Positions 7,227 to 46,292 of a DNA stretch of 52,641 bases are shown piece after piece (position 1 is the first letter of the stretch; every line of letters starts with the position of its first letter). Position numbers and translations under genes: made by a program. The notes under the pieces were generated by a model. It made no database searches. It saw nothing but the letters and a program-made list of their open reading frames with translations, and had not been told where the DNA came from. This DNA comes from Alphaproteobacteria bacterium (GTDB lineage Bacteria > Pseudomonadota > Alphaproteobacteria > JAAXGF01). The stretch is from assembly GCA_046758065.1 (NCBI GenBank), contig JBHHZM010000002.1, positions 1 to 52,641 on the forward strand, given 5' to 3'.

Positions 7227-7260
7227 CGCGGCGGGGCCGGCTGCGTACCTCTAATAACGA

Positions 7261-7667
<407 letters not shown>

Positions 7668-7919
7668 GCCGATTCCGTTCCTGCTTCCGCCACCGGGATG
7701 AATCGCCCGGATGTCCCGATGTCTCGGGGGCCATGCGCGGCCGCCCGGATGTCGGGCGCTATGCTCGCTCTTGCCTGGTTGAGAACATTAGATGAACATA
7801 AATTCGCCACATTTTGCTGCCAGGTTCAAAGGAAAACGCGGGTCATTGCACGCGATCGACTTTGTTCACACGACGTTCTCAAAGAAACGCGTCTTAGGAA
7901 ACGAGTGAAAGTCCTTGCG

Positions 7920-7935
7920 TTAAGGAAATATTAAC
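7920..7935 (+). promoter_or_regulatory. Full-consensus CtrA box TTAA-N7-TTAAC upstream of the dcw promoter region
   Basis: Sequence TTAAGGAAATATTAAC read directly. It lies in the low-GC spacer, 13 bp upstream of a TTGACG -35-like hexamer. Confidence 0.5.
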
Positions 7936-7947
7936 TAGTCTGCGGCA

Positions 7948-7990
7948 TTGACGCCCATGATATCCCATGGTATCCCATACAGTCCCAATC
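7948..7990 (+). promoter_or_regulatory. Putative Pmra promoter overlapping four 10-bp-phased direct repeats (candidate MraZ operator)
   Basis: TTGACG (7948-7953), 17-nt spacer, TATCCC (7971-7976). Four phased repeats: acGCCCATga / taTCCCATgg / taTCCCATac / agTCCCAAtc (7951-7990), which read TGGGA on the opposite strand. Confidence 0.5.
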
Positions 7991-8072
7991 TGTTCGCGCA
8001 TCGGGCATGGTGGGACGGGGCAGGGGACGGTTGCCGCGGGAGACCGGCAGCCCGAAACAGGGGAGTGGCCGC

Positions 8073-8546
8073 GTGGCGTTGTTTCTGTCCACGTTCGTCA
8101 ACAAGATCGACCGCAAGGGGCGCGTCTCGGTGCCGGCGAGTTTTCGCGCCGCGCTCGCCGGTCAGGGCTTCCCCGGCATCGTCGCCTTCCCGTCGTTTCG
8201 CGACAGCTACAACGCCATCGAGGCCTGCGCCATGGACCGCATGGAGCGCCTGAGCGCGAGTCTCGACCAGCTCAATCCCTTCTCGGACGAACACGACGAC
8301 TTCGCCAGCGTCATCTTCGGCGCTTCGGCGCAGCTGCCCTTCGACGGCGAAGGCCGCATCATCCTGCCCGAGGCGCTGCGCGCCCACGCGACGATCGTCG
8401 ACCGGGCGGCGTTCGTCGGCCGCGGCGCGACCTTCCAGATCTGGGAGCCCGCGGCGCTTGAGGCCTTTCAGGCCGAGGCCCGGCGGCGCGCCAGCGAGGC
8501 GCGCGCGCGCTTCGAACTCGGACCGTCGGGAGGTGAGCGCGGATGA
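8073..8546 (+). CDS. mraZ: Transcriptional regulator MraZ
   Basis: [25 protein letters not shown] is the typical MraZ N-terminus, with a second SpoVT/AbrB-like repeat ([12 protein letters not shown]). GTG 8073 follows a GGGGAG RBS; upstream residues of the ORF 8007..8546 are not conserved-looking. Confidence 0.9.
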
Positions 8547-9511
8547 ACGGCGCCGCGACAAGCGACGGCGGACACCGCCCGGTGTTGCTGAGCGAGATTC
8601 TCGCCGCGCTCGCGCCCCGCGACGGCGGTATCTACGTCGACGGCACCTTCGGCGGCGGCGGCTACAGCCGCGCCCTGCTTGCCGCGGCCGAGTGCACGGT
8701 GTGGGCGATCGACCGCGATCCGGAAGCGCTCGCCCGCGCCGCCGCGCTGATCGACGCGTTCGCGCCCCGCCTCGGCGTCATCGCCGGACGCTTCGGCGAG
8801 ATGGACCGATTGCTCGCCGCCCGCGGCGTCTCCGCGGTCGACGGCGTCGCACTCGACCTCGGCGTTTCGTCGCAGCAACTCGACGATCCGTCGCGGGGCT
8901 TTTCGTTCCGGCACGACGGCCCCCTCGACATGCGCATGGAAAGCGCCGGGCACACCGCGGCCGAGGTGATCAACGAGAGCGGCGAGCAGGCGCTCGCGGC
9001 GATCATCTTCAATCTTGGCGAGGAGCGCCGGGCGCGCCACGTCGCCCGGGCCATCGTCGAGGCGCGCGGCGAGCGGCCGATCACCCGCACCGGCGAACTC
9101 GCCGCCATCGTCCGTCGCGTCGTCAGGCCGGCGGCCGACGGCATCGACCCGGCGACCCGGACGTTCCAGGCGCTGCGCATCCACGTCAACGACGAACTCG
9201 GCGAGATCGACCGCGGCCTCGCCGCCGCCGAACGGTTGCTCTTGCCCGGCGGGCGCCTTGTGGTGGTGTCGTTCCACTCGCTCGAAGACCGCCGCGTGAA
9301 GCGTTTCCTCGCCGCGCGCTCGGGCCGCGTCCCGCGTCCCAGCCGCCATGCGCCGGTCGTTGCCGAACCCGCCGCGCCCAGTTTCCGGCTGCTTGGCCGG
9401 GGCGCGCGGCGTCCTGCCGCCGGCGAGATTGCGGTCAACCCCCGGGCCCGCTCGGCGCGGCTGCGCGCCGCCGAGCGCACCGCCGCGCCGGCCTGGGAGA
9501 CGGCGGCATGA
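8543..9511 (+). CDS. rsmH: 16S rRNA (cytosine1402-N4)-methyltransferase RsmH
   Basis: [10 protein letters not shown]...[11 protein letters not shown]...[13 protein letters not shown]...[15 protein letters not shown] overlap with mraZ. Confidence 0.95.
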
Positions 9512-9822
9512 ACGCGCCGTCCAATGTGCTCTGGGTGGCGCTGATCGGCATCGTCGCCTTCGGCCTGTTTCAGCTCAAACACGCGGTGCAGCGCCTCGAG
9601 GACGAACTCGCCGGCCTCAACCGCGAACTCCTCGCCAGCGAGGAAAACATCCACGTGCTGCGCGCCGAGTGGAGTTATCTCAACCGGCCCGAGCGGCTCG
9701 CAGTCCTTGCCGCGCGCCATCTCGACCTCGAGGCCTTGGCGCCGGCGCAGATCGGCGCGGTCGAAGTCCTGCCGTTGCGCGCCGACGTCGCCCGGCTCGC
9801 AAACCCGGAGAAGGCGCCGTGA
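9508..9822 (+). CDS. ftsL: Cell division protein FtsL (alphaproteobacterial type)
   Basis: 104-aa bitopic protein ([19 protein letters not shown] followed by a coiled coil) in the canonical slot between rsmH and ftsI. ATGA overlap upstream and GTGA overlap downstream. Confidence 0.8.
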
Positions 9823-11561
9823 GCCCGCAACGCAATCGGTTCGCGGACGACGCGCCCGCGATAGACGGTCGCGTCCGGCTCGACGGCCTCGCCAGCCAGG
9901 CGCTGCACACCGGGTGCCATCGCCTGATGTTCGGCGCCGTTCTGTTCGCGCTCGCCTTCTTCATCGTCGGCCTGCGGCTGGTCGACGTGGTTCTGCTCAA
10001 CGACGGCTTCGAACCGCGCCTCGCGCGTGCGGCGCCGACGCAGCACGCCCAGCTCGGCCGTCGCGACATCGTCGACCGCAACGGCGTACTGCTCGCCACC
10101 AACCTGCCCACCGCTTCGCTGTTCGCCGATCCCGCCCGGGTGCTCGACGCCGGCGAGGCGGCCGGCAGGCTGGTCCGCGTCCTGCCCGAGATGAGCCGCG
10201 CCGAGATTCTCGACAAGCTGACCAGTCCGCGGCGCTTCGTCTGGCTCAAGCGCAACCTCACGCCCCGCCAACAGGATGCGATCAACCGCCTGGGATTGCC
10301 CGGAATCGCCTTTCAGCGCGAGGAACGACGGGTCTATCCGCTGGGTGCGCTGTTTTCCCATGTCGTCGGGTTCGCCGACATCGACGGCCGCGGCATCGCC
10401 GGCGTCGAGAAGTCGTTCGACGAGACGTTGCGTGCGGCGGCGGAAGGCGAAGCGGCGCCGCTCAGGCTGTCTCTCGACACCCGTGTCCAGCACGCGCTGC
10501 GCGAAGAGCTTGCCCGCGGCATGGCGACGTTCGATGCCGCCGGCGCCGCGGGCGTCGTGCTCGACGCGACCAACGGCGCCGTGCTGGCGATGGTCTCGCT
10601 GCCCGACTTCGACCCCAACCGCTCGCGCGACGGCCGGCAAGCGGCGCGCTTCAACCGCGCCACCCTCGGCGCCTACGAGATGGGTTCGACCTTCAAGGTG
10701 TTCACCACGGCGATGGCGCTCGACGCCGGCGTCGTCACGCTGCGCGACGGCTACGACGCCAGCCAGCCGATCCATGTGGCGCGCTTCGTCATCCACGACT
10801 ACAAGCCGGCCAACCGCTGGCTGTCGGTGCCCGAAATATTCGTGCGCTCGTCGAACATCGGCGCGGCCAAGATGGCGCTCGACATCGGCACCCGGAGGCA
10901 GCGCGAATACCTCTCGCATCTCGGTCTGCTTTCGCCTGCCGAGATCGAGCTGCCCGAGGTTACCGCGCCGATTCTGCCGTCGCCGTGGCGCGAAATCAAC
11001 ACCATGACGATCGCCTACGGCCATGGTCTCGCGGTCAGCCCGTTGCAGCTCACTTCGGCGGTCGCGGCGGTGGTCAACGGCGGGGTGTTCTATCCCCCCA
11101 CCCTGGTCCGGCGCTCGTCCGCGGAGCCGAGCCTCGGCTGGCGCGTCATCGAACCCGACACCTCGACCCGGATGCGCGCGCTGATGCACCTCGTGGTCGC
11201 GCGCGGCACCGGCAAGAAGGCGGCGGTGCCCGGTTATCTGGTCGGCGGCAAGACCGGCACGGCGGAAAAGCCGGGGCGCGGCGGCTATCGGCGCAAGTCG
11301 CTGATTTCGTCGTTCGTCGCCGCCTTTCCCATCGACGCGCCGCGCTTCGTCGTGTTCGCCATGCTCGACGAACCGCGCGGCACCAAGAAGACACACAACT
11401 ACGCGACGGGCGGCTGGACCGCGGCGCCGATCGTCGGCCGCGTCATCGCGCGCCTCGGACCGATGGAGGGTCTCGCGGCGCGCGGGGACGACGCCGAGGA
11501 TCCGGCGGAGGCGCGGCTCGTCAAGATCGCCGGTCGGGAGGGCGCGGGTGTTGCTTTCTGA
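9819..11561 (+). CDS. ftsI: Peptidoglycan D,D-transpeptidase FtsI (PBP3)
   Basis: N-terminal TM, then SxxK (GSTFK), SxN (SSN) and KTG (KTGTAEK) motifs. GTG 9819 overlaps the ftsL stop. Confidence 0.9.
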   Translation: MSPQRNRFADDAPAIDGRVRLDGLASQALHTGCHRLMFGAVLFALAFFIVGLRLVDVVLLNDGFEPRLARAAPTQHAQLGRRDIVDRNGVLLATNLPTASLFADPARVLDAGEAAGRLVRVLPEMSRAEILDKLTSPRRFVWLKRNLTPRQQDAINRLGLPGIAFQREERRVYPLGALFSHVVGFADIDGRGIAGVEKSFDETLRAAAEGEAAPLRLSLDTRVQHALREELARGMATFDAAGAAGVVLDATNGAVLAMVSLPDFDPNRSRDGRQAARFNRATLGAYEMGSTFKVFTTAMALDAGVVTLRDGYDASQPIHVARFVIHDYKPANRWLSVPEIFVRSSNIGAAKMALDIGTRRQREYLSHLGLLSPAEIELPEVTAPILPSPWREINTMTIAYGHGLAVSPLQLTSAVAAVVNGGVFYPPTLVRRSSAEPSLGWRVIEPDTSTRMRALMHLVVARGTGKKAAVPGYLVGGKTGTAEKPGRGGYRRKSLISSFVAAFPIDAPRFVVFAMLDEPRGTKKTHNYATGGWTAAPIVGRVIARLGPMEGLAARGDDAEDPAEARLVKIAGREGAGVAF

Positions 11562-13008
11562 GCTGATCAACGGCGACGGCGGACCGGCCGGAAAAATCGA
11601 GATTCGCGGCCTTACCGCCGATTCGCGTGCGGTCCGCCCGGGTTATCTGTTCGCCGCGCTGCGCGGCAGCCGTGCCGACGGCAGCGACTTCGTCGCCGAC
11701 GCCGTCGCCCACGGCGCGATCGCCGTGCTCGCGGCCGAAGGCGCGCGGATCGAACTTCCCGAGGACAAGGTACGGCTGGTCACCGACGCCAATCCAAGGC
11801 GCCGGCTGGCGCTGATGGCGGCGCGCTTCCATCCGGCGCAGCCACGCGTCATCGCTGCGGTGACCGGCACCAACGGGAAGACCTCGGTCGCCGCCTTCGC
11901 CCGGCAGATCTGGGAGCGCATGGGGGTGCCCGCCGCCTCCCTCGGGACCCTTGGCATCGTCGGACGGGACGTATCGCGGTCGTTGTCCCACACGACCCCC
12001 GATCCCGTGACGCTGCATCAAGCGCTCTCAGATCTCGCCGCGGCGGACATCGACCACCTGGCGATCGAGGCCTCGAGCCACGGTCTCGACCAATGCCGGC
12101 TCGACGGCGTTCGGGTAAGCGCCGCGGCCTTCACCAATCTGACGCAGGATCATCTCGACTATCACCCGAGCGCCGAGGCCTATCTCGCCGCCAAGCTGCG
12201 CCTGTTCGACACGGTGATGGCGCCGGGCGGTGTCGCCGTGCTCAACGCCGATGCGCCCGAATTCGCGCGCCTTGCCGAAGTCTGCCGCGCGCGCGGTCAC
12301 CGCATCATGAGCTACGGCCGCACCGCGGGCGACCTGCGTCTGGTCGGCGCCGGGGCGGTGGACGACGGCCAACGCCTGACGATCGACGTCGCCGGCCGGC
12401 GCCGCACCGTCGCCCTGCCGCTTCCCGGCGCGTTCCAGGCGATGAATGCGCTCTGCGCCGCCGGGCTCGTGGTTGCCTGCGGCGTCGCGATCGACGACGC
12501 GCTGGCGGCGCTGTCCGGGATCGCCGGCGTTCCCGGCCGGGTCGAGTGCGTCGCCCGTCACCCCTGCGGCGCGCCGGTCTACGTCGATTACGCGCACACC
12601 CCCGACGCGCTTGCCCACGTGCTCGAAGCGCTCAGGCCGCACGCCCGCGGCCGACTCGTCGTCGTCTTCGGCTGCGGCGGCGACCGCGACCGGACCAAAC
12701 GGCCGCTCATGGGCAAGATCGCCGCCGCGCTCGCCGATCATGCCATCGTCACCGACGACAACCCGCGGGGCGAGGACCCGGGAGCGATCCGGCGCGCCGT
12801 GCTCGCCGCCTGCCCCGGCGCCGACGAGGTCGACGACCGCGCCCGGGCGATCCGCGAGGCGATTGCCCGGCTCGCCCCGGGCGACGTTCTGGTCATCGCC
12901 GGCAAGGGTCACGAACGGGGTCAGATCGTCGGCCAAACGGTCATCCCCTTCGACGACGCCGAAATCGCCCGCGCCGCCGTCGCCGGGCTTCGCGGAGACG
13001 ACCGGTGA
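11548..13008 (+). CDS. murE: UDP-N-acetylmuramoyl-L-alanyl-D-glutamate--2,6-diaminopimelate ligase
   Basis: Mur ligase P-loop GTNGKTS and the DNPRGED (DNPR, meso-DAP specificity) motif. GGGAGGG RBS. Confidence 0.95.
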   Translation: MLLSELINGDGGPAGKIEIRGLTADSRAVRPGYLFAALRGSRADGSDFVADAVAHGAIAVLAAEGARIELPEDKVRLVTDANPRRRLALMAARFHPAQPRVIAAVTGTNGKTSVAAFARQIWERMGVPAASLGTLGIVGRDVSRSLSHTTPDPVTLHQALSDLAAADIDHLAIEASSHGLDQCRLDGVRVSAAAFTNLTQDHLDYHPSAEAYLAAKLRLFDTVMAPGGVAVLNADAPEFARLAEVCRARGHRIMSYGRTAGDLRLVGAGAVDDGQRLTIDVAGRRRTVALPLPGAFQAMNALCAAGLVVACGVAIDDALAALSGIAGVPGRVECVARHPCGAPVYVDYAHTPDALAHVLEALRPHARGRLVVVFGCGGDRDRTKRPLMGKIAAALADHAIVTDDNPRGEDPGAIRRAVLAACPGADEVDDRARAIREAIARLAPGDVLVIAGKGHERGQIVGQTVIPFDDAEIARAAVAGLRGDDR

Positions 13009-14435
13009 GCGACGCGATCCTGTGGACGGCGACCGAGGCCGCGCGCGCGACCGGCGGGGAGACGCCGGCCGAATGGGACTGCACGAGCATTGCCTCGGAC
13101 AGCCGCAAGGTCGAGCCCGGCGCGCTGTTCGTCGCCCTCAAGGGCCCCAACCACGACGCCCACGATTATGTCGTTCAGGCATTCGAGCGCGGCGCCGCGG
13201 CGGCGCTGGTGGCGCGTCGCCCCGAAGGCGTCGCCGCCGGGGCGCCGCTGCTGGTGGTCGACGACGTGCTCGCGGCGCTCGGACGGCTCGCCCAAGCGGC
13301 GCGCGCGCGGACCGCGGCGCGCGTCATCGCGGTGACGGGGAGCGTCGGCAAGACGGGCACCAAGGAGACCTTGCGGCTCGCGCTTTCCGAGCAGGGCGCC
13401 ACCTTCGTGAGCCCGGCGAGCTACAACAACGCCTGGGGCGTGCCCCTGAGCCTCGCCGCCCTGCCGCGCGACGCGATGTACGCCGTCTTCGAGATCGGCA
13501 TGAACCACCCGGGCGAGATCGCCCCGCTGGCGCGGCTGGTGCGGCCCGACGTCGGCGTCGTCACCGTGATCGAAGCCGTGCATCTCGCGTTCTTCGATTC
13601 GCTTGCCGCGATCGCCGACGCCAAGGCCGAATTGTTCGAAGGCATGGATGCCGACGGCGTCGCCGTGCTCAATCACGACGACCGCTTCTACAAGCGCCTC
13701 GCCGCCGCCGCCCGGGCGCGCGGGATGCGGCGTATTCTCGCCTTCGGCCGCGATCCCGGCGCCGAAGTGCGCCTCGTCGAGGCGACCAGCGACGCCGAAT
13801 CGAGCGCCGTGACCGCCGCCGTCGAGGGCGAGACGATCCGCTACACGGTTGGCGCGCCGGGCCGCCACTGGGTCGATACCAGCCTCGCCGCGCTCGCCGC
13901 CGTCAGGGGCGTCGGGGCCGACGTCGGCCGCGCCGCCGCGCGGCTCGCCGAGGCGCGGCCCTTGCCCGGCCGCGGCGCCCGCCACCGCGTGTCGCTCGAC
14001 GGCGACGCCTTCACCCTGATCGACGAGAGCTACAACGCCAACCCGGCGTCGATGCGCGCCGCCATCGCCAACCTCGGCGCGACGCCGCCCGGCCCCGGCG
14101 GCCGGCGCATCGCCGTGCTCGGCGACATGCTCGAACTCGGCGGCGCCGCGCCGGCGCTCCACGCCGCGCTCGCCGATCCGCTGGCCGAAGCGGACGTCGA
14201 TCTGGTGTTCACCGCCGGGACCCACATGGCGCGCCTGCGCAGGGCGCTGCCGGCGGCGCGCCGCGCCGGCCACGCCGAACGCTCGACCGACCTCATCGGG
14301 CCGGTCGTCGCCGCGCTGCGCGCGGGCGACGTGGTCATGGTCAAGGGCTCGCTGGGCAGTCGCATGGCGCCCGTCGTCGAAGCGTTGCGCGCGCGCAACG
14401 CCGCGCGCCGTCCGCGTGCCGCCGGCAACGGATGA
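13005..14435 (+). CDS. murF: UDP-N-acetylmuramoyl-tripeptide--D-alanyl-D-alanine ligase
   Basis: DSRKVEPGALFVALKG, GSVGKTGTKE P-loop, YNANPASM. GTGA overlap with murE. Confidence 0.95.
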   Translation: MSDAILWTATEAARATGGETPAEWDCTSIASDSRKVEPGALFVALKGPNHDAHDYVVQAFERGAAAALVARRPEGVAAGAPLLVVDDVLAALGRLAQAARARTAARVIAVTGSVGKTGTKETLRLALSEQGATFVSPASYNNAWGVPLSLAALPRDAMYAVFEIGMNHPGEIAPLARLVRPDVGVVTVIEAVHLAFFDSLAAIADAKAELFEGMDADGVAVLNHDDRFYKRLAAAARARGMRRILAFGRDPGAEVRLVEATSDAESSAVTAAVEGETIRYTVGAPGRHWVDTSLAALAAVRGVGADVGRAAARLAEARPLPGRGARHRVSLDGDAFTLIDESYNANPASMRAAIANLGATPPGPGGRRIAVLGDMLELGGAAPALHAALADPLAEADVDLVFTAGTHMARLRRALPAARRAGHAERSTDLIGPVVAALRAGDVVMVKGSLGSRMAPVVEALRARNAARRPRAAGNG

Positions 14436-14450
14436 ACGGGGCGCCCGGTC

Positions 14451-15539
14451 ATGCTGTTCAACCTGCTCTATCCGCTGGCCGACGATTTCGGGCTGTTCAA
14501 CCTGTTCCGGTATCTTACTTTCCGTACCGGCGGCGCGGTGCTGACCGCGCTCGTCGTGAGCTTCATCTTCGGCCCCGGCATCATCCGCTGGCTGGCGAAC
14601 CGGCAAGGCAACGGCCAACCGATCCGCGACGACGGTCCCGCGGGCCACATCCTCGCCAAGGCAGGCACGCCGACGATGGGCGGCTTCCTCATCCTGCTCG
14701 CCCTCAGTCTTTCGACGCTGCTCTGGGCCGACCTCACCAACGGCTATGTGTGGATCGTGCTGCTGGTCGCGCTGGGTTACGGCTTCGTCGGTTTCGCCGA
14801 CGATTACATGAAGGTGATGCAGCAGTCGAGCCACGGGCTTTCGGTGCGCTTCAAGTTCCTCATCGAGATCGGCATCGGCGTCGCCGCTGCGGTCTGGATC
14901 ATGCAGCTCACCGACAAGCCGCTGGCGGTGGGGCTTGCCGTGCCGTTCCTCAAGGACGTGCTGGTCGACCTTGGCTGGTTCTTCGTGCCGTTCGCGGTGC
15001 TGGTGATGGTCGGCACCTCGAACGCGGTCAACCTGACCGACGGGCTCGACGGCCTCGCCATCGTGCCGATCATGATCGCCGCCGCCTGTTTCGCCGTGAT
15101 TTCGTACCTCGTCGGCAACACGGTGTTCGCCAACTACCTGCAAATCCAGTTGGTGCCGGGCAGCGGCGAGCTCGCCGTGCTGTGCGGCGCGCTGGTCGGC
15201 GCGAGCCTCGGTTTTCTCTGGTTCAACGCGCCGCCGGCGATGGTGTTCATGGGCGATACCGGCAGCCTCGCCGCCGGCGGCACCATCGGGGCGGTCAGCG
15301 TGGTGACCAAGCACGAGCTCGTGCTGGTCATCATCGGCGGTCTGTTCGTCCTCGAGACCGTTTCGGTCATGGTCCAGGTGATCTCGTTCAAGATCACCGG
15401 GCGTCGCGTCTTCCGCATGGCGCCCCTGCACCATCATTTCGAGCAGAAGGGCTGGGCCGAGCCGACCATCGTCATCCGCTTCTGGATCATCGCCGTGGTC
15501 CTGGCCCTGCTCGGGCTGGCGACGCTGAAACTGAGGTAA
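14451..15539 (+). CDS. mraY: Phospho-N-acetylmuramoyl-pentapeptide transferase
   Basis: 362-aa polytopic protein with [13 protein letters not shown] and [11 protein letters not shown] motifs. Confidence 0.95.
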
Positions 15540-38843: not shown

Positions 38844-38906
38844 TGATGGCGGCGCGGGCAGTATATCGATTCATGAACCCGAGTGAGAGACGGGAGGCGT
38901 CTGCTG

Positions 38907-39428
38907 ATGCAGTCTGAGCGCAAACGGCGCGCGGCGCGCGTGCTCCCCGTCCTGGCCGCGCTGGGACTCGCGCTCGCGGCCTGCGCCTACCCGGTCGACA
39001 ATGGGGTCGGGCGACCGGCGACCGTCGCGGTCATCGACGCGCTCGACGACGCGGACTGGACGGCCCAGGCCCAGGCGTTTCAGAACGCGCTCGAGACCAA
39101 CAAGGTCGGCGAGAGCGCCAACTGGTCGAATCCGGCGAGCGGCCATCTCGGCACGGTGACGCCGACGCGCACCTACACGGCGAAATCGGGCGCGCCGTGT
39201 CGCGAATATCAGCAGACGGTGACGGTCTCGGGCGAGACCGCGATCACCCAGGGTACCGCCTGTCGCCAGGAGGACGGCACCTGGGAGACCGTCGCCGCGA
39301 CCGACGCGGCGCGCGGCTACCGGTATCGGCGCTACGCCTACGGCTATCCGTATTGCGGGTATTACCCCGGGTATTACGGCTACGGGTACGGCCACTACGG
39401 CTACGGCCATTACGGCTATTACTACTGA
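38907..39428 (+). CDS. Lipoprotein with COG4520-like surface-antigen domain and a C-terminal Tyr/Gly-rich low-complexity tail
   Basis: Lipobox LAAC. WSNPASGHLGTVTPTRTY...GAPCREYQQTV...GTACRQEDGTWE resembles the alphaproteobacterial 17-kDa surface-antigen domain. The tail is GYRYRRYAYGYPYCGYYPGYYGYGYGHYGYGHYGYYY. ATG 38907 follows a GGGAGG RBS. Confidence 0.75.
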   Translation: MQSERKRRAARVLPVLAALGLALAACAYPVDNGVGRPATVAVIDALDDADWTAQAQAFQNALETNKVGESANWSNPASGHLGTVTPTRTYTAKSGAPCREYQQTVTVSGETAITQGTACRQEDGTWETVAATDAARGYRYRRYAYGYPYCGYYPGYYGYGYGHYGYGHYGYYY

Positions 39429-39440
39429 GACCCGCGGCCG

Positions 39441-40247
39441 TTATCCGCCGACGCCTTTCCGCGGCATCATGCCGCGCGCCGGATTATAGCCGTAGATCGC
39501 GAGACCGAGGAACACCGCGAGCGCCAGCACGGTCCAGCCGAGCGCCGGGGCGTTGAGCTGACCGTAGAGCGCGTAACGGATGAGCTCGACCGCGTGGGTG
39601 AAGGGATTGACGGCGCAGAGCCGGTAGAGCAGCAGGCTCGATTCCTTCATCTTCCACAGCGGGTAGAGCGCCGAGGACATGAAGAACATCGGGAAGATGA
39701 CGAAGTTCATCACGCCGGCGAAGTTCTCGAGCTGGCGGATCGCCGTCGACAGCAGCATCCCCAGCGCGCCGAGCATCAATCCGCTGACGATCAGCGCCGG
39801 CAGCAGCGTGAGATAGCCCCAGGGCGGCGGCTCGACGCCGAAGGCCCAGGCGATGGCGAGGAAGGCGTAGACCTGGAGGATCGAGACGGCGACGCCGGCG
39901 AGCAGCTTGCAGGTGAGCAGGTACCAGCGCGGCAGCGGACTGACCAGCAGGGTGCGCATCGAGCCCATCTCGCGGTCGTAGACCATCGAGAGCGAGCTCT
40001 GCATGCCGTTGAAAAGCTGGATCATGCCGACGAGACCGGGCGCGATGTAGACCTCGTAGGTGATGTAGGTCTCGTACGGCGGGATAATCGAGATGCCGAG
40101 CGCGGCGCGGAAACCCGCGGCGAAGATGAAGAGCCAGACCAGCGGGCGCACCAGCGCGGCGAAGAAGCGGCCGCGCTGGCGGAAGAACCGCAGGCCTTCG
40201 CGTCCGACGATCCCGGCGAAGCAGCGCCAATAGTGGACGGGGTACAT
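39441..40247 (-). CDS. ABC-2 type transporter permease (NodJ/PedC-like)
   Basis: 268 aa, six TM segments, ABC-2 pattern (LVRPLVWLFIFAAGF...MVYDREMGSMRTLLVSP). Lies 8 nt downstream of its ATPase gene. Confidence 0.85.
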   Translation of the reverse strand: MYPVHYWRCFAGIVGREGLRFFRQRGRFFAALVRPLVWLFIFAAGFRAALGISIIPPYETYITYEVYIAPGLVGMIQLFNGMQSSLSMVYDREMGSMRTLLVSPLPRWYLLTCKLLAGVAVSILQVYAFLAIAWAFGVEPPPWGYLTLLPALIVSGLMLGALGMLLSTAIRQLENFAGVMNFVIFPMFFMSSALYPLWKMKESSLLLYRLCAVNPFTHAVELIRYALYGQLNAPALGWTVLALAVFLGLAIYGYNPARGMMPRKGVGG

Positions 40248-40257
40248 TTACAGGCTC

Positions 40258-41013
40258 TCAGCCCCGCGTCAGGGCGTCGAACGCCTCGGCGATCGTCGCC
40301 GCGCCGGCTGCGGCGTTGACCGCATCGAGCGCGCCCTGGGCCTGCACCCGGCCGCGGTGCAGCACGATGACGTGATCGCCCGGACGGACCTCGTCGATCA
40401 GGTGCGTCGCCCACAGGACGGCGATCGCGCCCGAGGCGCAGAGCGCGTGCACATGGTCGACGATCGCCTGGCGGGTGGGCACGTCGAGGCCGACGGTCGG
40501 CTCGTCGAGCAGCAGCAGCCCGGGCCGGTGGAGCAGCGCGCGGGCGATCTCGACGCGCCGCCGGTGGCCGCCGTTGAGCTGGCGTACGCGCTCGCCGGCG
40601 CGCTCGGCCATGTCGAGACGCTCGAGCTCGACGGCGATGCGCGTTTCGGTCTCGGCGCGGGCGAGTCCGTGCAGCGCGGCGTGATAGCGCAGGTTCTGGC
40701 GCACCGTGAGGTCGAGGTCGAGGGTCGGTTGCTGGAAGACGACGCCGATGTGGCAGAGCGCCCGCGTCGAGGCGCGCCTGAGGTCGTGGCCGGCGATGCG
40801 GACCCGGCCCGTGCGGGCGTCGTAGAGCCGGGTAATCAGCGAAAACAGCGTCGTCTTGCCGGCGCCGTTGGGCCCGAGCAGCACCTTGAACTCGCCGGCG
40901 CGGATGGCGAACGAGACGTCATCGAGCGCGAAGCTTTTGCCGAAGCTGTAACCGAGTCTCTCGACCGCGAGTGCGGGGGCGTCCTCCGGGGCTGTCCGGG
41001 CGGCGGCGGTCAC
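40258..41013 (-). CDS. ABC transporter ATP-binding protein (NodI/PedB-like)
   Basis: Walker A GPNGAGKTT, signature LNGGHRRR, Walker B LLLDEPTVGLD. GTG 41013 overlaps (GTGA) the stop of the upstream ORF. Confidence 0.9.
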   Translation of the reverse strand: MTAAARTAPEDAPALAVERLGYSFGKSFALDDVSFAIRAGEFKVLLGPNGAGKTTLFSLITRLYDARTGRVRIAGHDLRRASTRALCHIGVVFQQPTLDLDLTVRQNLRYHAALHGLARAETETRIAVELERLDMAERAGERVRQLNGGHRRRVEIARALLHRPGLLLLDEPTVGLDVPTRQAIVDHVHALCASGAIAVLWATHLIDEVRPGDHVIVLHRGRVQAQGALDAVNAAAGAATIAEAFDALTRG

Positions 41014-41720
41014 GGTGCGCGGACCTCGTCGACGATGGTGCGGATCGAGACCAGCAGCGGCTCGTCCTGACGGTCGGTGATGAAGTAATAGTCCGACAAC
41101 CGCGCGAACAACAGCGAGGGCGCGAGTGCCAGCCAGGGACGCACGCGGCGCCGCGCCCCGGCGAACGCGGCGTCGAGCGCGGCGGCGTCGGCCGCGCCGT
41201 CGAGCCCGCGCCACAACGCCCGCGCATAGCTCCCGCCGTGGAAGCCGGACAGCAGCGCGAAGCGCCGCGACGGGTCGAGCCCGAGCCAGTCGTCGCCCGA
41301 CGGCGCGGGCGGCGGCAGTCGCCCGGCGGCGGCCGCGCGCAGGAGCAGCACCGCCAGCCGCGGGTTCGCCGCGTCCGCCAGTCCCGCGCGCCGATCGAGC
41401 GCGGCGATGACCGGCGCCTGGGCGGCGAGCGTCTCGGCGAGCGCGAGCGGCGGCGTCGCGGGCGCCTCGCCGTGCCAGCCGAGCGCGAAACCGGCGACGA
41501 ACCACGGCCGGTCGCCCGGCGCCACACGCAGCCAGTCGGCGAGCCTGAGCTCGGTCGAACGCACGTCGTCGAGCTCGCTCGCCGGGGCCGGCGCGACGAG
41601 GCCGAGAACCAACGCCGCCGCCAGTCCCCGGCAAAACACGACAACCAGCATCGAAACGGCGCCGTCGCGGTGTTTTTCATCCGCGGGGCCTGTGAAACGA
41701 TGATGCGCCGGGCCGGACAT
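41010..41720 (-). CDS. Hypothetical secreted or membrane-anchored protein (operon member 'B'), no recognisable family
   Basis: Reading frame continuous with operon spacing: 8-nt gap upstream, GTGA overlap downstream. Hydrophobic N-terminal segment MLVVVFCRGLAAALVLGLVAPAPA. Start is either 41720 or 41651. Confidence 0.55.
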   Translation of the reverse strand: MSGPAHHRFTGPADEKHRDGAVSMLVVVFCRGLAAALVLGLVAPAPASELDDVRSTELRLADWLRVAPGDRPWFVAGFALGWHGEAPATPPLALAETLAAQAPVIAALDRRAGLADAANPRLAVLLLRAAAAGRLPPPAPSGDDWLGLDPSRRFALLSGFHGGSYARALWRGLDGAADAAALDAAFAGARRRVRPWLALAPSLLFARLSDYYFITDRQDEPLLVSIRTIVDEVRAP

Positions 41721-41730
41721 CGCCTGCGCC

Positions 41731-42297
41731 TTACTCGCCACCGAGACCCAGCACCGCGACAAGCGCCGCCTCCTTCTCGGTGATGCGCCGGCGCGCACGC
41801 AGCGCCTGGGCCAGACTGCGCCGCGCCTTGGCCTCGGACTGTGTGTAGTAGGCGCGGTTGGAGTCGCCGGATGCGGCGCCGGCGCGCAGATCGGTGAAGA
41901 CCGCGACGTGATGGTACCAGGCATCGACCGCCTCGCAGTTGAGGTCGCGGTAGAACGCCATGTCCTTGAGCGCGTAATAGGCGATCGCGGCGCGCAGCGC
42001 CGGGTCGCCGCCGCGCTCGGCGAGCAGGCGGGCGATTGCGGCCGCCGCGCGCCGGGGGTTCTCGCTCGGCTGGATGCGCGTACTCACCTCGAGGCCGAGG
42101 GTGGCGTCGAGTTCGCTGGGCGCGCGGGCGATGCCGTAAGTCTCGAGACGCGCCGCGAGGTCGGCCTCCATCGGCGTTTCGCGGCAGGCGAGGATGATCC
42201 GCTCGACGGCGTCGGCGTCGATTTCGGGCGTCGATTGCGCCTGCGCCGCGCCGGCGAGTGCGACAACGACGACGACTATCGACCACCCCCGGGTCAC
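41731..42297 (-). CDS. Hypothetical periplasmic protein (operon member 'A'), no recognisable family
   Basis: GTG 42297 overlaps (GTGA) the cupredoxin stop. Signal peptide WSIVVVVVALAGAAQA, followed by an acidic, predicted helical mature part. Confidence 0.6.
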   Translation of the reverse strand: MTRGWSIVVVVVALAGAAQAQSTPEIDADAVERIILACRETPMEADLAARLETYGIARAPSELDATLGLEVSTRIQPSENPRRAAAAIARLLAERGGDPALRAAIAYYALKDMAFYRDLNCEAVDAWYHHVAVFTDLRAGAASGDSNRAYYTQSEAKARRSLAQALRARRRITEKEAALVAVLGLGGE

Positions 42298-42863
42298 GGA
42301 TAGCCCGGCTGGTCCTCGGGGCCGAGTGCGTCGTCGGCGATGGTGACGTAAGGGGCCTTGGCCTCGGCGCTGACCGTGAAGTGATCCCACATGCCGGCCT
42401 GGGCGTGGCCGGCGACGCCGCACAGGAGGTGGAACACGCCCGGTTTCTTGGCCTTGAAGCGTAGCGAATCCGTGCACGCCAGACAGCCTTCCCGGGGATC
42501 GCTCGAATAGGCGCGCGGGATCCCGACCTGTTCGCGTCCGGCGTCGTTGGGGAAGGCGTCGGGCGCGAACGGCTGGCTTACGATCAGACTGTGCGGGTAG
42601 TTGCCGTCGGGGTTCTTGAAGTCGATCCGGACCTTCGCGCCGAGCGGGATGACCACGGTCATGCCGCCCTCGCTGTAGCCGTTGAAGTTCCACGAACCGT
42701 TGTTGCCGTTGTAGGCGGCGACGATCTCGATCTTGACCGTGTTCTTCGCCTCGTCGAACGTGAGCCAGCTCGGGACGATCCGCTCCGCGGCGAGCGCCGG
42801 CGCCACAACGATCAGCGCCAGCGCGCCGGCACCGAGGAGTCCGTTCGATACGATGCCTCTCAT
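42294..42863 (-). CDS. Sulfocyanin-like type-1 (blue) copper protein, periplasmic
   Basis: Signal peptide ...VVAPALAA. NGNNGSWNFNGYSEGGMTVVIPLGAKV resembles the SoxE/sulfocyanin domain. Candidate T1Cu ligands: H in NYPHSL, then C-x4-H-x4-M in LLCGVAGHAQAGMW. AGGAG RBS 7 nt before ATG 42863. Confidence 0.75.
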   Translation of the reverse strand: MRGIVSNGLLGAGALALIVVAPALAAERIVPSWLTFDEAKNTVKIEIVAAYNGNNGSWNFNGYSEGGMTVVIPLGAKVRIDFKNPDGNYPHSLIVSQPFAPDAFPNDAGREQVGIPRAYSSDPREGCLACTDSLRFKAKKPGVFHLLCGVAGHAQAGMWDHFTVSAEAKAPYVTIADDALGPEDQPGYP

Positions 42864-42922
42864 CGGTCGCTCCTGCCGTTCCGAAAACCCGTGTGCGTCG
42901 CCGGGCGGGCGGCGCACGAGGC

Positions 42923-42951
42923 GGCGCCACCCCGGAGACCGGGGTGGCGCC
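42923..42951 (-). other. Intercistronic 13-bp GC-rich stem-loop between the dehydrogenase and cupredoxin genes
   Basis: GGCGCCACCCCGG-AGA-CCGGGGTGGCGCC, a perfect palindrome about 22 nt downstream of the dehydrogenase stop. No adjacent U-tract. Confidence 0.6.
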
Positions 42952-42972
42952 TGAGCCCGCCGGGCGGTGCGT

Positions 42973-44652
42973 CTATTCGAGCGCGAAGACGAGCAAGGCG
43001 TCGCCGCGCTTGAAGTTGGTCTGATGCACGCCGCCCGAGGCGACTGCGATGTGCAGCTTGCCGTCGACCTCGAACGCCATCGGCGCAGAGTTGACGCCGG
43101 CGCCCGCCTGGAACTGCCACAGCTGCTCGCCGGTGCGCGCGTTGTAGGCCTTGAACAGGCCGTTGCCCTCGCCGGCGAAAACCACGTCTCCGGCGGTGAC
43201 CAGCGCGCCGCCGATCATCGGCTGCTCGGTCTTCGCCTGCCAGACGATCCAGCCGTTGTCGACGTCGACCGCCGTGACGTTGCCCCACTGCTGCTCGCCG
43301 GGGATGGCGACGAACGCCGATCCCAGCCACAGCCTGCCCTTGGCGTAAGGCGCGTTGTGGGTGATGTAGTCCATCGGCTGGTGCAGGTTGACGTAGTAGA
43401 CCATGCGGGTGTCGGGACTGAACGCCCCCGGCGACCATTCGACCCCGCCGTTGGCGCCCGGCAGCATGCGCGTGCCGGCCTCGGTAGGCTGCGCGAACAG
43501 GTTCTCCTGCGGCACCATCGACGGCGAGCGCCGGATGAGCCGCCCGTCGCGGCGGTCGTGGACGTAGACCCAACCGGTCTTGCCGCCGTGGATTGCGCCG
43601 GGAACCATGTTGCCGTTCTCGTCGGCAACGTCGGCGAGGATCGGCGGCGACACCGCGTCGAGGTCCCAGACGTCGTGCGGGACATACTGATACGCCCATT
43701 TGATCTCGCCGGTCTCGATGTCGAGGGCGAGCAGCGAATCCGACCAGCGGTTGTCGCCGGGCCGCACCGAGCCGTCGAGATCGGGCGACGGGTTGCCGGT
43801 GGTGACGACGACGAGCCCGAGGTCGGGGTCGATCGACGGCGTCATCCACTGCGAGGCGCCGCCGCGCTTCCACGAATCGGCGTACTTGCCCGAGGCGACC
43901 GCCGCCTTCTCGCCGGCGACGTCGCGATGGAGCGGGTTGATGCCGTCGGCCTTGGCGACGTAGACGCCTTCCCAGCCCTTGACGCCGTCGGGCGAGGCCT
44001 CGTCGGGCGCGGGAATCAGGTGGGTGCGCCAGATCAGGTCGCCGGTGTCCTTGTTGTAGGCGCTGACGAAACCGCGGATGCCGTACTCGGCGCCCGAGAT
44101 GCCGAGGATCACCTTGTCCTTGTAGATGACCGGCGCGTGGGTCTCGGAGTAGCCGGCCTCGGGGTCGGCGATCTCGGTTTCCCAGACCAGCTCGCCGCTG
44201 CGCTTGTCGAGCGCGATCAGCATGGCGTCGAGCGTCGCCATGTAGACCAGGTTGCCGGCGATCGCCACGCCGCGGTTGTTCGGTCCGCAGCAGAAAATCG
44301 TGGTGCCGAGCTTGTGCTCGTAGTGCCACAGTTCGCGCCCGGTCGCAGCGTCGATGGCGAAGACGTGGTTGTACGGAGTGGTGATGTACATCACCCCCCG
44401 CTCGACGATCGGCGTGTTCTCGTACGAACCGACGATGCCGCTTTGATGAATCCATTTGAGACGCAGGCCGTCGACGTTGTCGACGTTGATCTGATCGCTC
44501 GGCACGAAACGCATCTGGCCGAGATCGCCGCCGTAGTTGAGCCAGTCGCGGCTCTGGCTGCCGGCGTGCAGGATCTCCTCCCAGCTCGCGGCCGAGGCCG
44601 CGGTCGCCACACCGGCGACGACGCCAGCCAATATCAGGCTCTTTAAAGACAT
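42973..44652 (-). CDS. PQQ-dependent dehydrogenase, methanol/ethanol family (predicted lanthanide-dependent by D-x-D signature)
   Basis: Sec signal ...ATAASA; vicinal disulfide FCCGPNNRG; GISGAEYGIRGF; TTGNPSPD; WDLDAV active-site block; eight-bladed propeller Trp-docking repeats. ATG 44652 follows a GGAGAGGGG RBS. Confidence 0.9.
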   Translation of the reverse strand: MSLKSLILAGVVAGVATAASAASWEEILHAGSQSRDWLNYGGDLGQMRFVPSDQINVDNVDGLRLKWIHQSGIVGSYENTPIVERGVMYITTPYNHVFAIDAATGRELWHYEHKLGTTIFCCGPNNRGVAIAGNLVYMATLDAMLIALDKRSGELVWETEIADPEAGYSETHAPVIYKDKVILGISGAEYGIRGFVSAYNKDTGDLIWRTHLIPAPDEASPDGVKGWEGVYVAKADGINPLHRDVAGEKAAVASGKYADSWKRGGASQWMTPSIDPDLGLVVVTTGNPSPDLDGSVRPGDNRWSDSLLALDIETGEIKWAYQYVPHDVWDLDAVSPPILADVADENGNMVPGAIHGGKTGWVYVHDRRDGRLIRRSPSMVPQENLFAQPTEAGTRMLPGANGGVEWSPGAFSPDTRMVYYVNLHQPMDYITHNAPYAKGRLWLGSAFVAIPGEQQWGNVTAVDVDNGWIVWQAKTEQPMIGGALVTAGDVVFAGEGNGLFKAYNARTGEQLWQFQAGAGVNSAPMAFEVDGKLHIAVASGGVHQTNFKRGDALLVFALE

Positions 44653-44728
44653 TACCCCTCTCCCCATAAGACGATCCTTTCGCGCGCCGGAGCGCGCGGT
44701 CGTCCTTTGTCGTTGGTGAAAGCCGGGC

Positions 44729-44815
44729 TCAGTCGAGCTCGGCGCAGGCGTAGCAGTTGATTTCCATGCCGACGGCGATCTCGACGATCACCGGCTTGGA
44801 CCATACGCGCGACAT
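44729..44815 (-). CDS. pqqA: PQQ precursor peptide PqqA
   Basis: 28-aa peptide MSRVWSKPVIVEIAVGMEINCYACAELD with the W-x-K-P block and the E-x3-Y cross-link motif. It closely resembles the Methylobacterium-type PqqA pattern (..VGMEVTSYESAEID..). GGGAGGA RBS. The longer 68-aa ORF in the track is an upstream extension. Confidence 0.85.
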   Translation of the reverse strand: MSRVWSKPVIVEIAVGMEINCYACAELD

Positions 44816-45565
44816 ACCCCGTCCTCCCGGTTGTTGTATTTGGACACAGGTCAACCACCCCCGGTCGCCGACCTTCGGCGACCGCAAGCGATACCCCCGC
44901 ACCGCTATGTTGCGGCGAATCCGATCGCGAATCAAGTTTCGGGTTGGTCGGGGTGATGTGCGGGAGTTTGGGTCGAGGTTCGACGCACCAAAATCGCACG
45001 GCGGACTCGAACGCCGACTATGGCGATGAAAGCGGTCGTCGTTCGGGCGCGGGCCGTCGTTCCGGCGGCGCCATCACGCCGGCGCCGCAGCGAAGTTCGT
45101 TCCCGGGACGCGCGGCCCCGCCGAGCCCGTCGCCGAAACCGGAACCCTCGCCATGGGTCAGACCTTGCCGTCCAAGATCGGAGCGATCATGGGGTGCGCT
45201 CTGAGGCAAAGCCGAAGAAAATCATCGGAACGTCGGCTCTTCCCCACCTTCCAGACCACTTGGCGCGGCGGTCGGGACAGGAAAAGCTGGCCAAAAACGG
45301 ACCTAGGAATGAAGTTCGGAAGCCCGGGGTTTCCCGAACGGCGTCGTCAGGCGGATTTCCGGTATCCCCGCTGGGCCTCGCGGGTCATTGACTTCTCCGG
45401 GATATCCTCTACATATCCCACATACGTGATGCATTTGTTTTGTGTTACCTAAATAACCGGCACGCCGATTAGCTTAGTTATCCCCTGACAATGCGAGCGT
45501 TAAACCGACCGCGCCGTCACATGGTGTGAGGCGCGGAATCAAGACTCCTGTTAGAGGAAATAACT

Positions 45566-45775
45566 ATGGCTACTGGTACTGTAAAGTGGTTCAACCCGGC
45601 CAAGGGTTTCGGATTCATCGAGCCGGAAGACGGCTCGAAAGACGCTTTCGTCCACATTTCGGCCGTCGAGCGCGCCGGACTGAGTTCGCTTAGCGAAGGG
45701 CAGAAGGTCTCCTATGAGCTTCAGCCCGGACAGAACGGCAAATCTTCCGCCGAGAACCTGTCCATCATCGACTAA
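45566..45775 (+). CDS. cspA: Cold-shock protein (CspA family)
   Basis: [15 protein letters not shown] (RNP1) and DAFVHISAV (RNP2). 69 aa. Confidence 0.97.
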
Positions 45776-45787
45776 CCACGCAAGGCA

Positions 45788-45813
45788 CCGCCTCCAACTC
45801 CCGTTGGGGGCGG
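45788..45813 (+). terminator. Possible terminator hairpin after cspA (no U-tract)
   Basis: CCGCCTCCAAC-TCCC-GTTGGGGGCGG, an 11-bp stem with one G-U pair, 13 nt after the stop codon. Confidence 0.3.
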
Positions 45814-46049
45814 CCACCGCTCGCCGTCAGCGACGCGACCTTCAACGATCGCGCGGCGGACCGAAGGAAATGGGCCGACTGATCGGTGGTCATTCCTTCT
45901 GCAACAAAAAAACGACGAACAATAAGATAAACGGCGCGATGCGCCGTGCCGTCGCCGACCTTGCGCACCATGCTGCGAGCAGTCCCGCCTGCGCTCCGGG
46001 ACGAAAATTTCCGCCCGTGACGCCTCGAACCGAAGCAGAGGATTACCAA

Positions 46050-46292
46050 ATGCGGATGTCAGTAAAATCGAGGGCCGAGGAACAGTTCGCCGCAATCCAG
46101 AAGAAGGCCAAGCAGGCCCTGAAGGAAAAGGAAAAAGCGCGGCAGGAGATCGCGGAACGCGTGGCGAGGCTGCGGACCCTCCGCCTCGCCAAAGAGGCGG
46201 CCGACAAGGAAGCCGCCGAGGAGGCCGACGCCGAGAAAGCGGCCGCCAAGACCAAAAAGCCATCGCGTTTGCCCCAGGCTCACCGACACTAA
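46050..46292 (+). CDS. Hypothetical small Lys/Glu/Ala-rich coiled-coil protein (80 aa)
   Basis: In-frame ATG 46050 after an AGAGGA RBS. MRMSVKSRAEEQFAAIQKKAKQALKEKEKARQEIAERVARLRTLRLAKEAADKEAAEE... The upstream part of ORF 45714..46292 overlaps cspA and its hairpin and is discarded. Confidence 0.55.
   Translation: MRMSVKSRAEEQFAAIQKKAKQALKEKEKARQEIAERVARLRTLRLAKEAADKEAAEEADAEKAAAKTKKPSRLPQAHRH

Follow-up and report, generated by a model that had tools for sequence, protein, structure and literature searches.

A PQQ dehydrogenase and a sulfocyanin-like cupredoxin as the recurrent core of a bacterial gene cluster without a cytochrome c gene of its own

The stretch of DNA analysed here, 52.6 kb from the Alphaproteobacteria bacterium contig JBHHZM010000002.1 (hereafter the window), carries on its minus strand, at 39441-44815, a cluster of seven genes in which a pyrroloquinoline quinone (PQQ) dehydrogenase is followed by a copper protein of the cupredoxin fold. 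The cluster probably represents a periplasmic alcohol-oxidation system that lacks a cytochrome c gene of its own, in which the electrons of the dehydrogenase would pass to a dedicated cupredoxin and from there to the respiratory chain. To our knowledge, every characterised methanol/ethanol-family PQQ dehydrogenase is wired to respiration via a dedicated c-type cytochrome. The conserved core of the arrangement is the dehydrogenase together with the cupredoxin, joined in about half of the loci by a protein resembling the B protein described below, while pqqA, protein A and the PedB/PedC-type transporter (PedBC) are variable additions to this core. The genes were identified from open reading frames (ORFs) and their translations and subsequently with Pfam and NCBIfam profiles, and all seven were found in the minus-strand order that had been proposed from the letters alone (the sequence-only reading). 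From the 5′ end of the cluster, the features are:

44732-44815, minus strand: pqqA, 27 amino acids, MSRVWSKPVIVEIAVGMEINCYACAELD; PF08042 28.2 bits, above its cutoff, and TIGR02107 32.7 bits against a cutoff of 20
44681-44698, minus strand: GC hairpin CGCGCGC-tccg-GCGCGCG between pqqA and the dehydrogenase gene, -14.7 kcal/mol
42973-44667, minus strand: PQQ dehydrogenase; PF01011 E = 2.6e-83, TIGR03075 477.3 bits against a cutoff of 480.05
42923-42951, minus strand: 13-bp perfect-stem hairpin right after the dehydrogenase stop codon, -30.3 kcal/mol
42294-42863, minus strand: SoxE-like cupredoxin, 189 amino acids; PF06525 SoxE E = 1.7e-17
41731-42297, minus strand: protein A, 188 amino acids; no Pfam or NCBIfam match at E < 0.1
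41010-41720, minus strand: protein B, 213-250 amino acids, start uncertain; no Pfam or NCBIfam match at E < 0.1
40258-41013, minus strand: PedB/LutE-family ABC ATPase; TIGR03864 357.6 bits against a cutoff of 302.25
39441-40247, minus strand: PedC/LutF-family ABC-2 permease; TIGR03861 444.8 bits against a cutoff of 241.35

The dehydrogenase and the cupredoxin

The closest solved structure to the dehydrogenase is that of PedH (6zcv, E = 2.2e-95), and the FCCGPNN motif with its vicinal cysteines, GAEYG, TGNPSP and HDVWDLD all align with the corresponding PedH residues, as do the Glu, Asn, Asp and Asp that serve the metal and catalysis. The PHDVWDLD of the window protein stands opposite PHDGWDFD in PedH and therefore provides the lanthanide-type D-x-D with the extra aspartate of the lanthanide-dependent enzymes. 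Since the Cys-Cys pair, the D-x-D and the Glu/Asn/Asp/Asp set are all retained, the enzyme, an eight-bladed PQQ propeller by its PF01011 match, looks catalytically competent, and it carries a Sec signal that predicts a periplasmic location. A motif census of the cupredoxin-linked homologues found PHD[VP]WD[LY]D in 36 of 37 and the Cys-Cys pair in all 37. The protein is about equally distant from the ExaA and XoxF structures and scores 2.7 bits below the TIGR03075 cutoff; two relatives, from the loci L009 and L034 (fetched relatives of the cluster are labelled in this style throughout), reach 446 and 444 bits. As the window protein and both tested relatives score under the cutoff, the cupredoxin-linked dehydrogenases may constitute a separate clade.

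By its sequence, the next gene product is a secreted sulfocyanin-like type-1 copper protein, in agreement with the sequence-only reading, which had described a secreted cupredoxin with an H...C-x4-H-x4-M ligand set. Besides the PF06525 match, it has a Sec signal peptide, its profile matches rusticyanin, auracyanin and the electron-donating cupredoxin domains of nitrite reductases in the PDB, and the ligands H91 and C148-x4-H153-x4-M158 are invariant in the alignment of an 11-member protein family. Among the linked cupredoxins of the other loci, the C-x4-H-x4-M is present in 35 of 35 and the upstream histidine in 34 of 35. The protein is not a sulfocyanin proper, as its score of 72.8 bits lies far below the cutoff of 168.4 for the TIGR03094 equivalog. 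Its closest relatives share a GC-x2-C loop (residues ~126-129 in the window protein) that is missing from distant members and could form a disulfide or a second metal site. Signal peptides are predicted from the sequences of all four soluble proteins, namely the dehydrogenase, the cupredoxin, A and B.

Recurrence of the gene pair and search for a cytochrome c

The distribution of the pair was surveyed in one genome per GTDB species, scanned with the cupredoxin alignment, and the 80 loci kept were searched with the window proteins. A homologous dehydrogenase (46-86% identity) lies immediately upstream of the cupredoxin, on the same strand and less than 1 kb away, in 36 of the 80, and both genes are present in 40 when looser arrangements are counted. 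The carriers are metagenome-assembled genomes (MAGs) of Alphaproteobacteria (one of them Kiloniellaceae), many Gemmatimonadota, Vicinamibacterales (Acidobacteriota), Ca. Dormiibacterota, Ca. Velthaea (Eremiobacterota), "ANGP1" and unclassified bacteria, a spread of at least five phyla. Cupredoxin relatives that are at least 44% identical are nearly all dehydrogenase-linked. Because the pair recurs in so many loci across phyla, the placement of a cupredoxin in the usual position of the cytochrome, which had been pointed out for the window, is not an accident of one genome. The seven genes had also been expected to be conserved together, an expectation that fails, since the complete set recurs in a single other contig, L003.

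No C-x-x-C-H motif had been seen in the seven products, and this absence extends further: in all six frames of the whole window the motif is found inside no ORF, the sole pattern match spanning a stop codon. Around the 36 pairs, ORFs with a coding signature and a CXXCH motif were collected within 5 kb, which yielded a TlpA-like thioredoxin in 12 loci and one single ORF each in L021 and L033. The WCPTCH of the TlpA-like protein is a thioredoxin motif and not a haem site, so that a CXXCH ORF of another kind stands near only two of the 36 pairs, the nature of either ORF being open. A contrast within one contig is offered by L009, which contains two sets. In one, a canonical xoxF-like gene is accompanied by MoxJ_2 (TIGR03871, above cutoff) and by a small cytochrome c; the other consists of dehydrogenase, cupredoxin and B-like protein without a cytochrome. 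As both types of set occur on one contig, the cupredoxin-type system is a distinct and recurrent module, in which the gene position of the dedicated cytochrome falls to the cupredoxin.

The wider neighbourhoods of the pair vary between lineages. Sixteen Gemmatimonadota loci (L027, L029-L031, L034, L037, L044, L059, L062, L066, L077, L079, L084, L086, L089 and L090) share a larger neighbourhood ~2-8 kb upstream of the dehydrogenase, with an extracytoplasmic-function (ECF) sigma/anti-sigma-like pair, DUF1684, a TlpA-like redoxin and, on the opposite strand, a second cupredoxin-like gene whose methionine ligand is replaced, giving C-x4-H-x4-E, in the two copies read (L027, L034). These are followed by a major facilitator superfamily (MFS) transporter, by eye resembling an oxalate/formate antiporter, and a small membrane protein, then by the dehydrogenase and the cupredoxin, and often by a porin-like protein of 380-400 amino acids that has no Pfam match. 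In the alphaproteobacterial relatives L003 (289-1966) and L007 (3057-4882) the module is preceded by an orphan DctP-type binding protein of the tripartite ATP-independent periplasmic (TRAP) kind and a secreted protein of ~215 amino acids; the two secreted proteins are 51% identical to each other and match no family, and the window contains no relatives of either gene. L007, from the Kiloniellaceae MAG, also carries a complete mercury-resistance operon of merR, merT, HMA, merB, merF and merA right after the cupredoxin (10616-15385), and L017, from an alphaproteobacterial MAG, has a FIST-domain sensor and a gene for ~800 amino acids between the dehydrogenase and the cupredoxin (6463-9806). Weak hints at C1 metabolism come from formate dehydrogenase genes in L009, a formate-tetrahydrofolate ligase in L006 and the upstream MFS transporter of the Gemmatimonadota.

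Transcript organisation, accessory genes and surroundings

The junctions of the cluster largely follow the sequence-only reading, in which the seven genes were taken as a single transcription unit. Both GTGA overlaps are exact, the GTG start of A overlapping the cupredoxin stop codon at 42294-42297 and the stop codon of B overlapping the ATPase start at 41010-41013, and the 109-nucleotide gap between dehydrogenase and cupredoxin was measured at the same value. The A-B and ATPase-permease gaps, put at 8 nucleotides, are 10 nucleotides each, and the gap between pqqA and the dehydrogenase, put at 77, is 79 nucleotides from a start at 44652 or 64 from one at 44667; translation more likely begins with the ATG at 44652, which is preceded by the ribosome-binding site GGAGAGGGG. 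Independent public gene calls, made on metagenome contigs nearly identical to the window, agree on 189 amino acids for the cupredoxin and 188 for A, and place the start of B, for which about 236 amino acids had been estimated, so as to give either 213 or 250.

The overlaps and the 10-nucleotide gaps support co-transcription of the five genes from the cupredoxin to the permease. This part of the proposed transcription unit stands, while the unit as a whole is uncertain, given the conserved hairpin after the dehydrogenase. All eight loci that were folded (the window, L003, L007, L016, L018, L103, L034 and L021), which span Alphaproteobacteria and Gemmatimonadota, have such a hairpin after the stop codon of the dehydrogenase gene; a T-run follows it in L034 and L103, in the manner of an intrinsic terminator, and a U-tract is lacking in the window. 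The hairpin after pqqA likewise has an analogue at the same place in L003 and is probably an attenuator or a transcript-stabilising element. Taken together, the hairpins look like attenuators or transcript stabilisers that set stoichiometry. They came from folding; a simple terminator scan gave nothing above chance, and a promoter scan returned no sigma-70-like site.

The pqqA gene, whose E-x3-Y motif reads EINCY, is a lone copy directly upstream of the dehydrogenase. It occupies the same place in L003 (96% identity) and is divergent from the dehydrogenase in L103 and in L007, where it forms part of a divergent pqqA-B-C-E group. At the other end of the cluster, both transporter proteins exceed their cutoffs for TIGR03864 and TIGR03861, which bears out the PedB/PedC-type resemblance suggested for them. 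The remark that the function of such transporters is still unclear is out of date, as growth that depends on lanthanides requires PedA1A2BC in Pseudomonas putida and LutAEF in Methylorubrum extorquens; these homologues are also needed to move lanthanide from the periplasm to the cytoplasm, and mutants accumulate lanthanum in the periplasm (PMC6839425, PMC7391723). The permease of L003 is 87% identical to that of the window, and PedBC accompanies the module only in the window, in L003 and probably in L099. Relative to pedB, A and B sit where pedA1 and pedA2 would be, although they are unrelated to them and predicted to be helical.

When 1.84 billion representative proteins were searched exhaustively with HMMER, the family of protein A came to 11 members. 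Its context is readable in eight places, and in each of them its gene is immediately 3′ of the cupredoxin gene, often overlapping it; the contexts come from the window, L003, L004/L005 (copies of the window locus), L095, L096, L097, L098 and L100. The order of dehydrogenase C-terminus, cupredoxin and A is kept even in L096, of 28% GC, where A is only 25% identical, and in L100 A follows the cupredoxin with a Sel1 protein in place of ABC genes, none of which were seen. The protein is predicted to be secreted and all-helical, the latter from an AlphaFold2 model with a pLDDT of 76.7, and has two conserved cysteines, C38 and C121. It has no match in Pfam, in NCBIfam or among PDB sequences, and the best Foldseek hit in the PDB has E = 0.33. 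From its constant position, A may be a dedicated partner of this cupredoxin that helps, for instance, with its docking or maturation.

Protein B has a broader setting. Among 5.8 billion proteins, a word-indexed search returned only six relatives; their profile, run over six-frame translations of the fetched loci, brought out short B-like proteins of ~125-150 amino acids, encoded right after the cupredoxin in many loci, of Gemmatimonadota and of other groups. The short form corresponds to residues 106-213 of B (profile-profile comparison with hhalign, probability 98.7%, E = 4e-16), and the long form adds an N-terminal repeat of the motif DW..L.p..R.wfl.GF.lG. A B-like gene is present in 19 of the 40 dehydrogenase-linked loci versus none of the 40 cupredoxin loci without a dehydrogenase, a count in which two apparent exceptions sit at contig starts where the dehydrogenase has perhaps been cut off. 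In L102, reached by a metagenome scan seeded with the B alignment, a long B occurs without a cupredoxin; its gene lies divergent to pqqB and pqqE, which exceed their TIGR02108 and TIGR02109 cutoffs, and behind it come genes for a Sel1-repeat protein and for a GSDH-type PQQ enzyme with six blades. On the basis of the census and of this pqqB/pqqE context, B is the long form of a wider family that is tied to quinoproteins and PQQ in general and not to copper. The earlier description of A and B as matching no recognised family holds for Pfam, NCBIfam and the PDB by sequence or fold, but B is not the unassignable orphan it seemed, given the specific link of its family to quinoprotein and PQQ genes.

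The arrangement around B is otherwise variable. A B-then-Sel1 pair is also found in L006 and L100, B followed by a PedB-like ATPase in L003 and L099, and in L024 the B-like gene comes directly after the dehydrogenase, with two cupredoxin genes converging on it. Within the Gemmatimonadota B-like proteins appear to have been lost repeatedly, and frame-disrupted remnants follow the cupredoxin in L084 (~10700-10990) and in L034, L044 and L059 (~10560-10900), with fragments such as ...DGRDWEE...EVNNRV and ...KEAYLAN.... B is predicted to be secreted, and its alignment shows many invariant Trp, Arg, Tyr and Asp residues and no conserved His, Cys or Met. It has no Pfam or NCBIfam match; the best PDB sequence hit (E = 0.0037 over ~30 residues) is not credible, and the best Foldseek hit in the PDB (E = 1.1) comes from an AlphaFold2 model of low confidence (pLDDT 59.5), too poor for it to mean anything. 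A QQRR before a hydrophobic stretch, a candidate twin-arginine signal, is present in the long-B homologues P0006, P0007, P0009 and L100 (1736-2434) and absent from B of the window, L003 and L006. A distant homology between A and B, suggested by a D-x-aromatic-F-Y likeness seen by eye, was rejected with an hhalign probability of 1.6%.

The surroundings of the cluster are ordinary chromosomal ones, with uvrC, pgsA, mobB, moeA and moaE on one flank and a 17-kDa-antigen-like gene and an unrelated ABC importer on the other. The antigen-like gene (38883-39428, plus strand) encodes a secreted protein, is convergent on the permease gene and has an unusual Gly/Tyr-rich tail, ...YGYPYCGYYPGYYGYGYGHYGYGHYGYYY. 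Between pqqA and uvrC, a 1.6-kb stretch of lower GC holds a cold-shock protein gene (45566-45775, plus strand, within a region at 45439-45817) whose long 5′ leader resembles the cspA thermoregulator of Rfam, at a score below threshold (41 bits, gathering threshold 78, E = 1e-8); just before uvrC, at 46050-46292 (plus strand), lies a small Lys/Ala/Glu-rich ORF, MRMSVKSRAEEQFAAIQKKAKQALKEKEKARQEIAER..., with strong AT skew and no Pfam match. Further away are a bacterial RNase P RNA (7263-7667, plus strand, 286.6 bits) and the start of the division and cell wall (dcw) cluster (~7900-15500) with mraZ, mraW, an ftsI-like penicillin-binding protein, a murE-like ligase and mraY.

Electron path, rival explanations and significance

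In the proposed mechanism, the lanthanide/PQQ eight-bladed dehydrogenase would oxidise an alcohol or aldehyde in the periplasm, and the reduced PQQ would pass single electrons to the dedicated secreted type-1 copper protein of the sulfocyanin type, which would carry them on to the respiratory chain and thus fill the role of cytochrome cL, XoxG, ExaB or PedF. The pqqA gene may supply the cofactor precursor in step with enzyme synthesis, and the PedB/PedC-type transporter would handle lanthanide as its homologues do. B could be an accessory or maturation factor for quinoproteins, cofactor or metal loading being a guess, and A a cupredoxin-specific partner. We infer which partners exchange electrons and in which direction, that the enzyme depends on lanthanide, and what A and B do; for the transfer step itself the grounds are precedent, the conserved adjacency, the intact redox site and the lack of a cytochrome gene. 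The step is thermodynamically reasonable, since type-1 copper proteins have higher potentials than PQQ/PQQH2. Amicyanin is the acceptor of methylamine dehydrogenase, and in the mau cluster the cupredoxin gene likewise stands next to the dehydrogenase genes. Azurin accepts electrons from a type II quinohaemoprotein alcohol dehydrogenase (ADH) (PMC8348568).

The system shares features with several known ones. Like PedH/ExaF with cytochrome c550 (PedF/ExaB), it has a periplasmic enzyme with eight blades, Cys-Cys and D-x-D and a PedB/PedC-family transporter nearby, whereas here a copper protein replaces the cytochrome c gene, PedA1/PedA2 are missing and two unknown accessory families are present. 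The order of a dehydrogenase gene, a dedicated small periplasmic carrier and accessory proteins, as well as the D-x-D of XoxF, recalls XoxF-XoxG-XoxJ and MxaFJGI, in which, however, the carrier is a haem protein and a XoxJ/MoxJ-type binding protein, lacking here, takes part. The proposed hand-over from a quinone-cofactor dehydrogenase to a cupredoxin is shared with methylamine dehydrogenase-amicyanin and type II ADH-azurin; the former enzyme uses tryptophan tryptophylquinone (TTQ) and not PQQ and has an unrelated fold, and in the latter the electrons first pass the enzyme's own haem c domain, while the present case would combine a haem-free, type I-like PQQ enzyme with a sulfocyanin-family cupredoxin and not an amicyanin or azurin. 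The ATPase and permease, above their cutoffs and beside a lanthanide-type quinoprotein, resemble PedA1A2BC/LutAEF, from which the cluster differs in lacking the binding protein PedA1/LutA and the YVTN beta-propeller PedA2, in whose position A and B are found. With Sulfolobus sulfocyanin (SoxE) the cupredoxin has the Pfam SoxE domain and the type-1 copper ligands in common, but it comes from a bacterium, carries a cleavable signal peptide and has a quinoprotein gene, not an oxidase gene, beside its own.

In the full-text literature searched, which excludes most subscription journals, a pairing of PQQ-ADH and cupredoxin genes is nowhere described. One paper speculates on blue-copper proteins as possible acceptors for the PQQ dehydrogenases of heterotrophic Thaumarchaeota that lack cytochromes (PMC7300363), and surveys of lanthanide enzymes in Gemmatimonadota and Acidobacteria discuss XoxG/XoxJ partners and a "PQQ-ADH type 8" with copper proteins unmentioned (PMC10875860, bioRxiv 10.64898/2026.07.10.737718). 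A hypothetical protein of cupredoxin fold occurs in the Methylobacterium lut (lanthanide-uptake) cluster (PMC6850437). The theme of a quinoprotein with a periplasmic carrier is thus already known, and what appears to be new, as judged from the genes, is a cupredoxin as the apparent dedicated carrier of a PQQ-ADH together with two uncharacterised accessory families.

A number of points weigh against this electron path. The evidence base is genomic throughout, and the window is 52.6 kb of a genome, so that the true acceptor could be a cytochrome c whose gene lies outside it. Half of the loci of the cupredoxin family lack a dehydrogenase, which shows further functions for this fold family, and in L017 the two genes are 3.6 kb apart. 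The terminator-like hairpin conserved between the dehydrogenase and cupredoxin genes means that their expression may be partly uncoupled. Both mature proteins are acidic, with isoelectric points of 5.0 for the dehydrogenase and 5.3 for the cupredoxin, and charge complementarity of the kind seen between methanol dehydrogenase and cytochrome cL is not obvious for the two. Furthermore, the PedA1 and PedA2 partners are absent beside PedBC in the window, B-like proteins are gone or decayed in about half of the linked loci and hence dispensable, and the occurrence of B with PQQ genes but without a cupredoxin in L102 argues against B in the electron path.

Some of these points would also be expected if a cytochrome c encoded elsewhere were the direct acceptor and the cupredoxin acted downstream, from a bc-type complex or cytochrome to the terminal oxidase, or served another enzyme, the adjacency then reflecting co-regulation. 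Sulfocyanin itself acts within the SoxM terminal oxidase complex of Sulfolobus, and the loci without a nearby dehydrogenase, about half of the family, would point to other respiratory contexts; the hairpin that separates the two genes and the limited length of genome in view also fit, and L009 shows that such organisms can make c-type cytochromes as well. This explanation nevertheless seems unlikely, as the two genes lie close together in a constant orientation in 36 loci from several phyla, almost all of the nearest cupredoxin relatives are dehydrogenase-linked, canonical systems keep the gene of the dedicated acceptor next to the dehydrogenase, and clustering of the neighbouring ORFs, with ~10 cluster representatives compared with Pfam, revealed no recognisable cytochrome or oxidase gene beside the pairs. 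A further explanation, that the downstream genes mainly serve cofactor handling and maturation, with PedBC moving lanthanide, A and B replacing PedA1/PedA2 and the cupredoxin-fold protein handling metal, agrees with the position of A and B relative to pedB, the overlap of the B stop codon with the ATPase start, the recurrence of B before a PedB-like ATPase in L003 and L099, the vicinity of B to pqqB/pqqE, and the lut genes of M. extorquens, between which two hypothetical genes are inserted, one of them predicted to have a cupredoxin fold (PMC6850437). It is rendered improbable by the type-1 copper ligands kept in the linked cupredoxins, a signature of electron transfer and not of metal trafficking, by at least 34 loci with dehydrogenase and cupredoxin, with or without B, that have no nearby PedBC, and by L100, where A follows the cupredoxin even without ABC genes seen. 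That the gene order is due to chance or recent juxtaposition and has no functional meaning is hardly credible: although the full order recurs in only one other contig and the flanks are housekeeping genes, the core pair is spread over 36 loci of several phyla, an organism of 28% GC still has the order dehydrogenase-cupredoxin-A, and B-like proteins occur in 19 of 40 linked versus 0 of 40 unlinked loci, so that the locus census effectively refutes it.

Transfer from the dehydrogenase to the cupredoxin is accordingly the explanation preferred here. The periplasmic oxidation module suspected from the sequence survives as a dehydrogenase-cupredoxin core with 36 recurrences and not as a conserved unit of seven genes. 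A wider form of the same idea, which is possible and is put forward only tentatively, is that of a widespread cytochrome-free entry into respiration, in which lanthanide/PQQ ADHs directly reduce blue copper in Gemmatimonadota, Alphaproteobacteria, Acidobacteriota, Dormiibacterota and Eremiobacterota, with the Trp/Arg-rich B helping quinoproteins to mature in the periplasm by binding or delivering PQQ or lanthanide, and with A as a cupredoxin-specific partner. The system is small, with two to four soluble proteins, and therefore directly testable in vitro. The B and A families are candidates for the periplasmic acquisition of PQQ or lanthanide by quinoproteins and for maturation or docking of a cupredoxin partner. 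If electron transfer to the cupredoxin is confirmed, it would change the acceptor of choice for enzyme assays and bioelectrochemistry of these dehydrogenases, the known link between copper and lanthanide/PQQ metabolism, and the models of electron flow and energy yield for abundant, mostly uncultured soil phyla, Gemmatimonadota above all.

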